Translations under genes and position numbers: made by a program | The notes under the pieces: model-generated | What the model was told of the DNA's origin: nothing | What the model saw: only the letters and a program-made list of their open reading frames with translations | The model's database searches: none | Shown here: piece after piece, positions 6,603-10,925 of the stretch | Layout: each line of letters starts with the position of its first letter | Numbering within the stretch: position 1 is the stretch's first letter | From: Candidatus Calditenuis fumarioli | GTDB lineage: Archaea > Thermoproteota > Nitrososphaeria_A > Caldarchaeales > Calditenuaceae | NCBI GenBank assembly: GCA_030059665.1 | Contig: JANVYR010000002.1 | Span: 480,617-504,616 of the forward strand | Direction of reading: 5' to 3' | DNA length: 24,000 bases

Positions 6603-9600
6603 CTAATTCTTCGTTAATGCCCCATTAGCCACCGCCTCCCTGATGTGCATCAGGACGTCTTCAATCACGCCCTCGGGGTTGATCCACCACTCGCTCGACC
6701 AGATCCTGTATATCCTCCAACCCAATCTCTCGAGGTGTCTCTGCCTGATCCAGTCCCTCTCCCGAGCTGTCCTGTGACTGTGGTACAGCCTTCCGTCGCA
6801 CTCTATCCCCAAGATGAACCGGCCGTTATGCAAGACTCCTATGTCGATCCTGTACCTTCCCACCCCGACCTGAGGGACGAGTTCCACCTCTTTGTTCAAT
6901 CCCTCATTGGTCAGGGCCGCCTGCAGACGTTTGAAGACCTCCTCCTCAAAGGGCGAGTCGAAAGGCTCTATGTGTGGATGTGAAGCTCCTCCCCTTTCGG
7001 CGTACTCCAAAAAGTCCCTCAGGACCCTTACGCCACGCGGGTCGTTGTCGTTAACCCTGATCATGTCGTATTTCATTGACGAGACGACCCATAGCATCTT
7101 CCTGGCTCTGGATATCAGGACGTTGATGCGTCTCTCTCCGCCTTCATTATTGATCGGCCCGAACGTCTTGCGCACCACTCCTTCGACCGGTCCGTAGGTC
7201 ATGCTGATTATCACGAGGTCTGCCTCCCTTCCCTGCACCGTCTCCAAATTCCTGACCAGCAGCCTGCCGTCCTCTTCCATCTCATCGATCAGATCGGCGA
7301 CTTCCCTCTCGCGATAGGGTAATGGAACGGTCAGGTGCTTCGCGTACCTGAAGGCCCTGAGCCTTTCCCTGTCCATGGGGCCCCTCCGATCAGATTGGGA
7401 TTGTGCCTTGTAGTCCTCGATGAGACCCTTTATTGCGTCCTGCTGCCTCTCGTTCATCGCCACTATCAGGATGCTCTTGTATTCCTTCGATTTCACCGCC
7501 TCGATGAGCCGCCAAAGAACTACTGCTGCCTCGTTCGGATTTACACCGGTTTTCGATATGTAGTTGCCGTTTTCGACGAAGAAGAACCGCACCCTCCTGT
7601 CATTAGGATCTGCTGAGGGATACACCACCAGACGGTTGTCGTAAAAATAAGCGTTGGAGAACGCGATGAGCGATTCGTGCTCTCCTCTGTAGTACCACCT
7701 GAGCCACTCCTCGCCGAAGACCCTGAAACCTGAAGAGTTGGTGTTGAGACATGCCTCCAGCAGACCCTCGGGAGTTTCGATTTCCTCGCCCTCCTCGTCC
7801 TCCTGCTGCTCGATCCTTCTCGTGAAGTAGTCCGTGGGTGGCATCTGCTGCTCGTCGCCGACTACTATGACCTGACGGCCTCTCGCTATTGCGGGGAGTG
7901 CTCGCTCCGTTTGCACCTGTGACGCCTCGTCGAAGACCACCACGTCGAAGAGCTGACCCTTGAGACCCCTCAGCAGCGTGGATACCATAAGAGGAGTCAT
8001 GATCAGGACGGGTTTGACCAGCAGTATCTCGTTTAAGTGGTCACGCATGATGCGGACGAGGGGGCGCCTCCTTCTGATCTTGAGCTGGTGGGCTGCGAGT
8101 TCCCTTAGCCTCATTATTGGACCTTTGAATAGCCGCGGACCACCGGGCAACGTTCTAAGCCCTAAGTTCAGTCTGATGGTGTGGATGACCTTGCTCCTCA
8201 ACGCGAGCGCTGCCAGCGCCACACTTCGGCCTTCTCCTAAGCGCTGCCCATCTCCATGTGTGTAGAGGCCATCGTAGTAACCGATGAGCTTCTGCATCGC
8301 TCCCTTAGGGCCCTCACGCACCTCGCTCAGCAGGCTTACGAGTGCCCTCCTCAGCTTATTACCCGACCGCTCGTAAGCGACGATAGATTCCCAGACCTCC
8401 GTGAGCTCGTCGAACGAACCGAAATTCTCAAGCAGTCTGTCAACGAAGCGCGAAAATTCCCGGTCGGCGATAACCCCTGCCAAGTCTAGGAGACGCTGAA
8501 GCTGAATCCCGAAGCTATCGCTTTCAGCCAGATCTTCTAGCACTATGACTGTGCGGTCGAGCAGCTCGGGGAGTACCAAATCCTTCCGGACGGCTTCCGC
8601 GTCAATAAGCCACTGCAGAAATCCACGCAGATCGCCTAGTCTCTTAGCGAGGCCCTGCAGGTCCAGCTCGGTATCGAAGAACTGCTGGGCGTACGCGAGC
8701 AATTCGTCCTCACCATCTGGAGATGGTTCGAATCCTAAAGCTTCGAGAGCGCGCTCACGACCATCAAGCAGTCTCCGCAGAGCCCTTTCTAGTTCTATTG
8801 TTGGCATCTTGTCTACTGCATGTCCCAGGAGCTGCCTGAGCTCGTTCACAAGTTCCTCCCTTAGATTCGAGGCATACTCGAGTTCGGAGAGCGTTCTATC
8901 CCTCTGGTAGTAGAGCTGACGTTTGATCTCTTTACGAGCGGTATCCGGTTCTATGCCGTACCTCCTCAGCTCGTGGGCCCACTGAGCGAGATGCCTGTGT
9001 CCCAGTAAAATCGTCTTGATTCTCGAGATCAGCCCCCGGGGGAAGAGCCTCATCATCAACTCATCTATGTCTTTCACCTCTTGGCTGAGATGATCGATCT
9101 TTCCATCCAACTCGAGGATCTGACGTGTGAGCTCCAGAGCGCGCTGCAACTTTCGTATGCTCAGCTTCACTTTCAGACCGTCCGTCACAACGTTCAGCAG
9201 CTTCACGCATTCACCGACACTCCTTTGGCCTTGAAGCCAGTTTAACAACCTCATTGATGAGGCGAGGTAACTTATCGCAAGAGACAGCTCCTCAGCGCTA
9301 GGATTCTGCTCCAGCCCGAGCCTGCTTCGGAGCCAGGCGACCGTCTGAAACAATGCGGGATCTAGGGTTCTCTGGCCTGTCTCTTCCCTTAGCTCAAAGG
9401 CGCTGAGTATCGCAGCGGAGTACTTCTGTTCTTCGAACCATCTGCGTACCGTATCCCTACCATGCTCCGCGAGAAGCTGCCGTAAAACCTGAACCTTTTC
9501 ACGCTTCTCCAGTAGCGCCTTGCTAGCGATTGCGAGGTCGTGTCTCATCTCGTTGCCTGAGACCAGGGCCAGATACTCCGAGTAGCGACCGTAGACGTTC

Positions 9601-10925
9601 CCAGGTAGGGGTGGGGGACCTGTAGCTGTTTCGCGGAGGGTGTGGCGCCCCTCACCCAACAGGAGGTCTATTGTGCGTATCAGATCTTCAAGGACCCTGT
9701 CTCGGTCTTCCCTTGACGTGCTGAGCACCTCAAGCACGGGAAGGTCCAGACCAGCCCCCCTCAGCCTGCTGATCACCACGTCGGCGGCGTCCTTCTTCTC
9801 GACGACGAAGAGCGCCCTCTTCCCCTCGGCGGCCAGCATGACCAGCAGATTCGCTATGGTCTGGCTCTTGCCTGTGCCAGGAGGTCCGTGAACCACGAGG
9901 TTCTCGCCCCTGAGGGCTCTTCGGATAACCCTCACCTGCGACTCGTCTGCAGGCAGAGGTGTGAGCAGTCCGTCGAGTTCGTATGGCTCGGGATCGTCGT
10001 TGGACGGTGGTTCACGTGGTGCCGCTGTGGTGTCGCCGCAGATCGCCCTGATGACCGGGTGTTTGAGCATCTCTCCGCGAAGCTCCATTGCGTCGTAGTA
10101 GATCGCCATGTCTGGAAACCCGAGCATCGCAAACCAGCACCGCCTCTTGACACCCTGGAAGAACCATCGACCTTTGAAGGCGTCCTCAAGAGCGTCTATG
10201 GCGCGGTTCAATTCCTCAACCGAGGTGAAGTACTCCTCGTCACCGGCGAGCCCTCCGCTGCGTCTCCCAATCGTCTCCTTCAGGTCGATCTCGTAGAGCT
10301 TCTGAAGGTAGACTCGCAGAGCTGGATTCAGCCTGAACCCGTCCTCGTCTAGAGTGACCTCGTAAATTTTCCTTCCCTCCCTTCGCCTAGGTCTTGCGGA
10401 GATGCTGCACCTGGCGATGAAGAGGGGTGAGCCAACGACCTGCTTCCCCTCGTTACCGGTGCCGTGCTGGCGGCGCCCCTCGGGTTCCCGCCATAGCAGC
10501 AGACCGTAGATCAAGTAAACGGATCCCGACCCTGTCTCGCTTCGTCGCTCCCTGTCGCGCCACATCATGCGGTTAACAAGATCGACGAGGTCCTGATCGT
10601 CGGTTATTTTCAGCTCCTTCTCGACCGCCTCCCTATCGATGAATCGATCGGAGCCTGACACTACGGACCAGTCGTCCACGTTGACGGCCAGCAGCTGCGC
10701 GCTTCCACCGTCCTCGTCCAATACCTCGTAGAGGATGTCCTCTCGAAGCGGGATGCATCTGGCCAGAACGCGGTCGCTGACTGAGAAGTAGAGCGACCTG
10801 TTCCTTCTGGAGATGTCGATGAGTCTCAGTAGAAATTTCTCGAGTCTCTCCTGTACTTTGATCGCGTGCTCGTCGCCGCTTACCCGTCGGCCCATCCCGG
10901 GCGTTCGAACGTCTTGGCCCTTCAC
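6603..10925 (-). CDS. Giant SF1 (Upf1/DNA2-like, AAA_11/AAA_12) helicase with N-terminal DUF4011-like region and C-terminal DUF559/Vsr-like (PD-(D/E)xK-type) endonuclease domain; Hhe-like candidate defence protein
   Basis: 1440 aa. The N-terminus LLRLIDISRRNRSLYFS ... LIYGLLLWREP ... FRLNPALRVYLQ fits the DUF4011 pattern. Walker A is VVHGPPGTGKSQT (residues about 345-357); motif II is VVVFDEASQV (residues about 995-1004). Later helicase motifs: WYYRGEHESLIAFSN, NLETVQGREADLVIIS, GERRINVLISRARK. C-terminal domain: SPFEEEVF...GRYRIDIGV...LGIECDGRLYHS...RDWIRQRHLERLGWRIYRIWSSEWW. The start may be GTG 10925 or ATG 10895 (M11). Confidence 0.9.
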   Translation of the reverse strand: MKGQDVRTPGMGRRVSGDEHAIKVQERLEKFLLRLIDISRRNRSLYFSVSDRVLARCIPLREDILYEVLDEDGGSAQLLAVNVDDWSVVSGSDRFIDREAVEKELKITDDQDLVDLVNRMMWRDRERRSETGSGSVYLIYGLLLWREPEGRRQHGTGNEGKQVVGSPLFIARCSISARPRRREGRKIYEVTLDEDGFRLNPALRVYLQKLYEIDLKETIGRRSGGLAGDEEYFTSVEELNRAIDALEDAFKGRWFFQGVKRRCWFAMLGFPDMAIYYDAMELRGEMLKHPVIRAICGDTTAAPREPPSNDDPEPYELDGLLTPLPADESQVRVIRRALRGENLVVHGPPGTGKSQTIANLLVMLAAEGKRALFVVEKKDAADVVISRLRGAGLDLPVLEVLSTSREDRDRVLEDLIRTIDLLLGEGRHTLRETATGPPPLPGNVYGRYSEYLALVSGNEMRHDLAIASKALLEKREKVQVLRQLLAEHGRDTVRRWFEEQKYSAAILSAFELREETGQRTLDPALFQTVAWLRSRLGLEQNPSAEELSLAISYLASSMRLLNWLQGQRSVGECVKLLNVVTDGLKVKLSIRKLQRALELTRQILELDGKIDHLSQEVKDIDELMMRLFPRGLISRIKTILLGHRHLAQWAHELRRYGIEPDTARKEIKRQLYYQRDRTLSELEYASNLREELVNELRQLLGHAVDKMPTIELERALRRLLDGRERALEALGFEPSPDGEDELLAYAQQFFDTELDLQGLAKRLGDLRGFLQWLIDAEAVRKDLVLPELLDRTVIVLEDLAESDSFGIQLQRLLDLAGVIADREFSRFVDRLLENFGSFDELTEVWESIVAYERSGNKLRRALVSLLSEVREGPKGAMQKLIGYYDGLYTHGDGQRLGEGRSVALAALALRSKVIHTIRLNLGLRTLPGGPRLFKGPIMRLRELAAHQLKIRRRRPLVRIMRDHLNEILLVKPVLIMTPLMVSTLLRGLKGQLFDVVVFDEASQVQTERALPAIARGRQVIVVGDEQQMPPTDYFTRRIEQQEDEEGEEIETPEGLLEACLNTNSSGFRVFGEEWLRWYYRGEHESLIAFSNAYFYDNRLVVYPSADPNDRRVRFFFVENGNYISKTGVNPNEAAVVLWRLIEAVKSKEYKSILIVAMNERQQDAIKGLIEDYKAQSQSDRRGPMDRERLRAFRYAKHLTVPLPYREREVADLIDEMEEDGRLLVRNLETVQGREADLVIISMTYGPVEGVVRKTFGPINNEGGERRINVLISRARKMLWVVSSMKYDMIRVNDNDPRGVRVLRDFLEYAERGGASHPHIEPFDSPFEEEVFKRLQAALTNEGLNKEVELVPQVGVGRYRIDIGVLHNGRFILGIECDGRLYHSHRTARERDWIRQRHLERLGWRIYRIWSSEWWINPEGVIEDVLMHIREAVANGALTKN

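Follow-up and report, generated by a model that had tools for sequence, protein, structure and literature searches.

Introduction

The single-gene Hhe system of Escherichia coli carries a DUF4011 region, a superfamily 1 (SF1) helicase and a Vsr-like nuclease, in this order, in one polypeptide. Hhe protects E. coli against lambda, T3, T7 and PhiV-1, and the exchange E1731A abolishes this protection (10.1101/2022.06.16.496414). For the same protein class II DNA-metabolism genes of T7 score as triggers, and one gene of Bas63 shows toxicity only when the cells carry hhe (10.1101/2024.10.10.617714). ProA, a second bacterial member of the family, is like Hhe annotated as an anti-phage protein, and a third group is captured by the PADLOC model PDC-S37. 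How Hhe, ProA and their relatives work is not described in the literature searched, and none of the papers covered, among them a cold-seep paper and the supplement of an archaeal survey, describes ProA or PDC-S37 by name. Here a related protein of 1440 residues from the archaeon Candidatus Calditenuis fumarioli is compared with these systems. Its gene lies in a stretch of 24,000 nucleotides (assembly GCA_030059665.1, contig JANVYR010000002.1, positions 480,617 to 504,616 of the forward strand), hereafter called the window. As judged from sequence comparison, what is new is a rare, deep archaeal clade whose middle module has diverged selectively. We consider it probable that the protein is a horizontally acquired, ATP-driven helicase-nuclease in one polypeptide, most likely serving, like Hhe, as solo innate defence against viruses or plasmids.

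Architecture and family placement

The gene is an uninterrupted open reading frame (ORF) of 1440 codons in which all catalytic motifs of a helicase-nuclease are intact (Table 1). Its true start is probably the ATG at 10895 (residue M11), since the homologues in alignment A1 start near M11 and a TTTATAA box, by its sequence a possible promoter element, lies upstream. An earlier sequence-only reading of the window had proposed a three-part protein made of a DUF4011-like region, an SF1 helicase and a Vsr-like nuclease; all three parts match Pfam families above cut-off, and the residue and nucleotide coordinates given there, with Walker A at residue 347 and FDEASQ at residues 998-1003, are correct. 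AAA_11 matches in two stretches, the better one at residues 327-390, AAA_12 at residues 1075-1284, MTES_1575 (PF18741) at residues 1326-1427 with 105.7 bits against a cut-off of 38.2, and DUF559 at residues 1346-1428. The further helicase motifs GDEQQMPP, VQGREAD and RRINVLISRAR are intact within residues 966-1300, and all features by which an Upf1-like SF1B helicase is recognised are present, namely Walker A, motif II of the form DExxQ, motifs III, V and VI and the RecA1/RecA2 fold. The Vsr-like nuclease is likewise identified by a hidden Markov model (HMM) score above the gathering score and by the catalytic residues D...E.DG...H. The protein ends 65 residues past the ECDG motif, and the Pfam scan of the 1440 residues gave no match to DUF3320 (PF11784). 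This tail had been noted as missing, which is correct but not distinctive, as its absence is common among relatives.

Which of the described systems is closest? The best PADLOC model is PDC-S37 (PDLC05009; 603 bits, E=3.8e-181), and the PADLOC model for Hhe (PDLC02194) gives 353.7 bits (E=4.6e-106). In NCBIfam the ProA model (NF058533) yields 599.8 bits in 3 stretches, below its cut-off of 1500, and the Hhe model (NF042953) 509.5 bits, below its cut-off of 2000. Since both equivalog cut-offs are missed widely, the protein is on present evidence not to be named Hhe or ProA and is better called a PDC-S37-like candidate. The earlier identification as Hhe holds for the wider family, which contains Hhe, but not for Hhe proper, as the PDC-S37 and ProA models score higher. 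The name itself, which that reading had credited to Payne et al. 2021, reportedly goes back to Gao et al. 2020, and the label of the system in DefenseFinder is 'Gao Hhe'.

With PDC-S37 the window protein shares the architecture, the class of spacing between Walker A and motif II (about 620-650 residues) and the total length (about 1350-1600 aa), and several PDC-S37 proteins of ~1400 aa are likewise devoid of the DUF3320 tail. However, typical short forms match the model in a single stretch (HMM positions 4-1346, 1050-1280 bits), whereas the window protein collects its 603 bits in three stretches and its clade about 600-660 bits in 2-3 fragments; the middle modules have only an island of 42 columns in common, and the clade branches apart in the rough tree described below. 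With Hhe it shares, besides the domain order, the nuclease motif, homologous N-terminal regions (hhalign Prob 99.9%) and a core identity of ~42%, but Hhe-type proteins are about 1680-1910 aa long, with a spacing of 916-936 residues and a middle region of about 810-826 aa, as compared to a spacing of 649 residues here, and their middle module has no detectable relation to that of the window protein (Prob 14%, 23 columns). ProA, which gives the highest NCBIfam score, has the catalytic domains in common with the window protein. The ProA proteins P0022 and P0053 are, however, about 2000-2200 aa long with a spacing of 847 residues, and P0022 also has a DUF3320 tail; Walker A lies near residue 705-720, owing to an extra N-terminal region of ~350-370 aa, rather than at residue 347, and at the profile level the middle module is unrelated (Prob 4%).

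In a rough neighbour-joining (NJ) tree of the conserved core, calculated without support values, the window protein and seven homologues (P0002-P0008) form a separate deep clade. These are the only eight clusters above 500 bits among 5.8 billion. Two of them carry taxonomic labels, both Nitrososphaerota, and the best non-self homologue is only ~38% identical over the full alignment. A near-identical protein with one different residue is deposited at NCBI as 'MAG: AAA domain-containing protein [Nitrososphaerota archaeon]' (MAG, metagenome-assembled genome; GCA_038991975.1). Residue 665 is K in the window and N in the MAG contig JAVYMT010000042.1, from which orf313 (see below) also differs by one residue; the window thus stems from a near-identical but separate assembly, and its ligase is a 100% match to a JGI contig.

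A middle module conserved in length and diverged in sequence

The sequence-only reading had described the middle region as helical without recognisable motifs, which agrees with the lack of any Pfam match for residues 425-965 and with an all-helical AlphaFold2 model of low confidence. It had also stressed the very large insertion of this archaeal version. An insertion of such length is no archaeal peculiarity. In a survey of the 120 best homologues, both motifs could be located in 119, and in every one of these Walker A and motif II are 620-1115 residues apart; the 649 residues of the window protein, measured by regular expression, belong to the shortest class, and the notion of an unusual insertion length was rejected. 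The spacings fall into classes of about 620-650, 847, 892 and 916-936 residues. The class of 847 is ProA, as P0022 (2364.5 bits) and P0053 (2190.1 bits) pass the NCBIfam cut-off of 1500 bits, P0119, the protein tested from the 916-936 class, is an Hhe (2690.7 bits, cut-off 2000), and the class around 630 matches the PADLOC model PDC-S37 end to end. The helical region between the two halves of RecA1 makes up the largest part of the proteins of this family. In the window protein the module, with a leucine content of 17.7%, sits between motif Ia and motif II, which we take to be the position of the accessory domain 1C in Upf1 structures.

What sets the archaeal clade apart is the sequence of this module. 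Profiles of the middle modules were compared between subfamilies by hhalign, the archaeal profile being made of seven sequences. Bacterial modules find each other with Prob 98.5-100% over 500-700 columns in five pairs among the S37, ProA, Hhe and 892 classes. The archaeal module, in contrast, reaches Prob 51% with the S37 class, over 42 columns at equivalent positions, and Prob 4%, 14% and 0.1% with the ProA, Hhe and 892 classes, the alignment with Hhe (Prob 13.8%) covering 23 columns. This failure is not an artefact of sensitivity, since the identical seven-sequence profile detects the N-terminal regions of the bacterial subfamilies with Prob 95-99.9% over ~270 columns (Hhe class 99.9%). Core identities between the archaeal and the bacterial groups are 40-42%, and those between bacterial groups 43-50%. 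With the module alone as query, an exhaustive phmmer search returned only the module itself and two repetitive unrelated proteins; these two matches were dismissed as compositional, one protein having PPR repeats and the other Ig-like and tail-fibre repeats.

At every depth within the clade the middle module is the fastest-evolving region. Among the four closest members it is 63% identical, as opposed to about 90% elsewhere in the protein; at the next level the values are 35% versus 68-78%, and for the window protein 15% versus 44-53%. The length is similar nevertheless, 515-539 aa in the archaeal clade and 510-535 aa in the group it was compared with, and these similar lengths together with the small collinear island may point to extreme divergence more than to replacement. 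The module of the clade is therefore distinct in sequence and not in length, and the mechanistically distinct variant proposed in the earlier reading, which cannot be argued from insertion length, is possible on the ground of sequence. It could also be imagined that the ~540-residue module serves the whole Hhe/ProA/PDC-S37 family as a fast-evolving, exchangeable unit for specificity or regulation and that the archaeal version, effectively unrelated because it was replaced or hyper-diverged, is tuned to archaeal viruses or their inhibitors; we regard this as quite unlikely.

A long branch and a poorly conserved middle region are also what would be expected of a relic, a transferred gene in decay or already inactive. 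However, the 4.3-kb ORF runs without interruption, no helicase or nuclease motif is damaged, the folds of the core domains are predicted with high confidence and the core regions are 84-96% identical among the closest clade members, indicating purifying selection, all of which makes a relic extremely improbable.

Nuclease competence and structure models

The residues D1361, E1375, D1377, H1382, R1388, R1390 and D1391 lie in invariant or near-invariant columns of an alignment of 46 homologues. The columns of D1361, E1375, D1377 and H1382, the putative catalytic residues, are conserved in 45-46 of the 46 sequences and kept in the clade too. By its motif, the nuclease is thus supported as catalytically competent, and the absence of such a motif, which the earlier reading had named as a counter-argument, is not what is seen. 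E1731 of E. coli Hhe presumably corresponds to E1375.

For residues 310-1320, an AlphaFold2 model based on an alignment of 47 sequences places both RecA-like domains mostly above a predicted local distance difference test (pLDDT) value of 90. The first part of RecA1 exceeds 90, and residues 966-1300 reach 84-97 over most of their length with a dip to ~61 at residues 1030-1050. Residues 425-965 are all-helical at pLDDT ~40-75 and consist of many helices of 10-40 residues rather than one long coiled coil. The N-terminal 330 residues adopt a confident fold (pLDDT 82.7), for which Foldseek found no significant match in the PDB (best E 0.066).

A Foldseek search of the PDB assigns the helicase core to the Upf1-like SF1B group, with matches to SETX, IGHMBP2, Sen1, DNA2, UPF1, Aquarius, ZNFX1 and nsp13, those to the first five at E 1e-10 to 1e-7, and a sequence search of the PDB agrees. 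With UPF1, IGHMBP2, Sen1/SETX, DNA2 and Aquarius the protein has the RecA1/RecA2 fold and the motifs in common, but target-normalised TM-scores are only 0.17-0.39, because Upf1-like helicases are without the ~540-residue helical insertion, the DUF4011 N-terminus and the Vsr-like C-terminus. None of the matches to the core covers the helical middle region.

Table 1. Positions of the helicase-nuclease gene, its parts and nearby features in the window
Feature	Position	Strand	Remarks
Whole gene, DUF4011 / SF1B helicase / Vsr-like nuclease	6603..10925	(-)	1440 aa from GTG start
TTTATAA, candidate archaeal TATA box	10929..10935	(-)	34-40 nt upstream of ATG 10895; read from sequence
N-terminal DUF4011 domain, residues 34-207	10305..10826	(-)	Pfam PF13195, 28.0 bits (cut-off 22.2)
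First part of RecA1, residues 327-424, with Walker A	9654..9947	(-)	AAA_11, AAA_30 and AAA_19 matches
Walker A GPPGTGKS, starting at residue 347	9864-9887	(-)	Residues invariant in alignments A1 and A2
Middle module of helices, residues 425-965, lying in RecA1 after motif Ia and before motif II	8031..9653	(-)	Without Pfam match
Rest of RecA1 and RecA2, residues 966-1300	7026..8030	(-)	Second AAA_11 stretch and AAA_12; invariant columns
Motif II FDEASQ, residues 998-1003	7917-7934	(-)	In the remainder of RecA1
C-terminal Vsr-like PD-(D/E)xK nuclease, residues 1326-1427	6645..6950	(-)	PF18741 MTES_1575 and PF04480 DUF559
tRNA-Lys(UUU) with intron(s)	11107..11229	(-)	Rfam RF00005, 40.6 bits; 180 nt upstream of the helicase gene
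orf313	11549..12490	(-)	Only gene in the 1.6-kb segment; GC3 0.615; island context, not part of the helicase
Intron-less duplicate of the 5' half of tRNA-Lys, att-like	12796..12831	(-)	25-nt exact direct repeat; far edge of the low-GC region

Composition and probable acquisition of the gene

The helicase gene has a GC content of 0.567 and a GC content at third codon positions (GC3) of 0.694, its neighbours a GC content of about 0.63-0.68 and a GC3 of 0.82-0.93 in 12 of the 13 genes with host-like composition, the VKOR gene having 0.72. The adjoining gene encodes a DNA ligase, whose relatives, labelled Caldarchaeales, Aigarchaeota or Calditenuaceae, are 76-90% identical. Two sister genomes (L084 and L085), with ligases 80% identical to that of the window, are collinear with window positions 467-6555 at ~80% nucleotide identity, and this collinearity stops exactly at the stop codon of the ligase (6553/6554). 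In both genomes the helicase is absent at the ligase junction, where a tRNA-Glu(CUC), a second intron-containing tRNA and HSP70 are found instead (L084 11602-12917; L085 11602-12115). The second tRNA is Ser(UGA) in L084 and Thr(UGU) in L085 according to ARAGORN. Between the two tRNAs L084 has an extra DUF3782/PDDEXK_10 gene, so the 3' junction of the ligase gathers different cargo in different genomes.

The helicase gene looks horizontally acquired, and its accessory nature is supported by the atypical composition, the absence from the sister genomes at this locus and the lack of a fixed synteny. Here it does not behave as a vertically inherited gene of fixed synteny, the outcome that would have spoken against the earlier reading, as it is missing in two sister genomes and its relative P0007 has a different synteny.

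In L086, a more distant relative whose ligase shows 63% identity, the ligase gene has immediately upstream of it a HEPN / nucleotidyltransferase pair and a gene resembling IS605 OrfB/TnpB (8894-9599, 5620-6582).

The tRNA-Lys gene, its partial duplicate and orf313

Upstream of the helicase gene lies a tRNA-Lys(UUU) gene, which ARAGORN misses in default mode and finds with a 30-nt intron when introns are searched for. The gene spans 123 nt, compared to 71 positions of the Rfam model; the 30-nt intron is at a non-canonical position, where it separates the D-arm from the anticodon loop, and what is left of the excess length points to a second intron near 37/38. At the far edge of the low-GC region the 5' half of this tRNA recurs, and a gapped alignment extends the repeat to 36 nt, as far as the anticodon (25/25 nt, then 9/11 nt). 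This intron-less copy shows that the tRNA-Lys has been an integration site. The repeat resembles a scar left by the integration of an element via the tRNA's 5' half; the intron is present in the intact gene and missing from the displaced copy.

Could the helicase be cargo of a mobile element at this tRNA-rich junction and serve the element, by excluding competitors or as an addiction-like toxic nuclease? The duplication of the tRNA-Lys 5' half brackets a segment of 1.6 kb (11230-12795; GC about 0.48), the only ORF of which, orf313, has relatives beside plasmid- or virus-like genes, the helicase gene is compositionally foreign too, and in L002 its homologue comes after a series of small ORFs, among them a ParB_N gene. 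Yet the segment lies on the far side of the tRNA from the helicase. The repeat pair excludes the helicase, and no repeat of the 3' part of the tRNA was found near the ligase/helicase junction (6554-6602), so that a helicase inside a repeat-bounded element was rejected, no matching repeat flanking it. Moreover, no integrase, replication or conjugation gene was found in the window, GC3 differs between the helicase (0.69) and orf313 (0.62), and the two co-occur in no other locus examined. Service to an element is accordingly highly doubtful. The low-GC island next to a tRNA integration hotspot that had been proposed earlier is borne out by the low GC and GC3 of the gene, the tRNA at a distance of 180 nt and the att-like repeat; the repeat pair, however, does not enclose the helicase.

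No match to orf313 was found in Pfam, PHROG or PADLOC, and it has only two homologues among the 5.8 billion clusters, both from one ENA sample (L091 10001-10930; L092 10001-10777). In both cases a LAGLIDADG_3 gene follows, within about 30 nt of the contig end. In L091 the neighbours are genes with DUF87 (HerA/VirB4-type ATPase), helix-turn-helix (HTH) and HVO_A0114 domains, which suggests that orf313 belongs to a small plasmid- or virus-borne family.

Farther along the window, a presumed gene, 'orf385' (15678-16835(-), 385 aa), was discarded as a spurious frame by its GC3 of 0.45 and the codon-position GC. The latter places the real gene at 15704-16369(-) (221 aa), after which an intergenic stretch of GC 0.49-0.51 (~16370-16838) precedes the IGPD gene.

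Neighbourhoods of relatives and proposed function

The loci listed by a genome scan for homologues are mostly bacterial, and the source lineage is not among the best 80. Within the clade itself P0007 is one of the few members with usable flanks, the other contigs being too short. Its gene (L002; Nitrososphaerota MAG GCA_038874635.1) lies in unrelated synteny and borders directly on a type I CRISPR-Cas locus (cas1-cas2-cas4-cas3-cas5-cas7-cas6) accompanied by a BrxL fragment. In this contig the homologue is found between the small-ORF block with the ParB_N gene (1-9123), possibly an integrated element, and the complete type I CRISPR-Cas locus with an 88-aa BrxL_ATPase fragment (14572-23837). 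Defence neighbours, for which the sequence-only reading had proposed to look in related archaea, are seen at P0007, but neither in the window nor beside relatives in Methanosarcina.

How might such a protein act? We infer the defence function and, with it, the substrates, the polarity and the role of the module; the mechanism proposed here is based on the domain anatomy and on the published data for E. coli Hhe. The SF1B motor would load on nucleic-acid structures that arise from the DNA metabolism of the invader, ATP hydrolysis would power translocation, with 5'->3' as the polarity of unwinding expected for SF1B, and the C-terminal PD-(D/E)xK nuclease would cut DNA. DUF4011 and the ~540-residue helical module in RecA1 may gate or target this activity. 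The helical module, as presumably the fastest-adapting part, might provide a specificity or regulatory surface, or it might be the surface that viral inhibitors hit.

Several observations weigh against solo defence. The protein stays far under the curated cut-offs for both named anti-phage equivalogs, and PDC-S37 is one of 145 candidates of a guilt-by-embedding survey (Payne et al., 2024; 10.1101/2024.01.29.577857). AlphaFold2 confidence is low for the helical middle module, and the fast evolution of this module may stem from the weak constraint on a spacer instead of from adaptation. Domain and PADLOC searches found no other defence gene in the 24-kb window. Pseudomonas aeruginosa has a core DUF4011 gene that flanks a defence hotspot (PMC10250203). 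Five relatives in Methanosarcina (L007, L009, L013, L015 and L058), 1820-1990 aa long, show partly conserved synteny and no defence genes nearby: a neighbour of ~320 aa, by Pfam counts suggested to be EamA- or TatC-like, is kept in all five loci, and one of ~185 aa, suggested in the same way to be a pyruvoyl-dependent arginine decarboxylase, is 93% identical in three, so that in Methanosarcina the gene has the appearance of a conserved chromosomal gene and not of cargo of a defence island. One bacterial relative of ~1400 aa lies among housekeeping genes. Judging from the contexts in P. aeruginosa, Methanosarcina and this bacterium, neither mobility nor a link to defence extends to the whole family.

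These core or syntenic settings and the missing defence neighbour, together with a core fold that matches DNA2, SETX and IGHMBP2 and the adjacent DNA ligase gene, could also point to a host genome-maintenance enzyme, a Dna2-like helicase-nuclease for DNA ends or replication and repair intermediates. Such a role is unlikely, since two sister genomes with a collinear ligase operon lack the gene at this locus, the GC3 of the gene is foreign, and no orthologue above ~38% global identity exists in the database searched, in contrast to the 76-90% of the ligase relatives. The adjacency to the ligase is not conserved either, P0007 being beside CRISPR-Cas. A horizontally acquired, Hhe-like defence protein is hence the reading we prefer.

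Implications

We take the lineage of Ca. Calditenuis fumarioli to belong to the phylum Thermoproteota of GTDB. Defence prevalence in Thermoproteota is generally low in a recent survey (PMC12988326). The protein described here adds a candidate single-gene immune protein to the thermophilic Nitrososphaerota. A clade in which the N-terminus, the motor and the nuclease are recognisable and a module of equal length is unrecognisable provides a comparison point for asking whether the module senses, targets or regulates. If the module were indeed exchangeable throughout the family, the archaeal clade would be a natural module swap that shows what the middle of Hhe/ProA/PDC-S37 proteins does.

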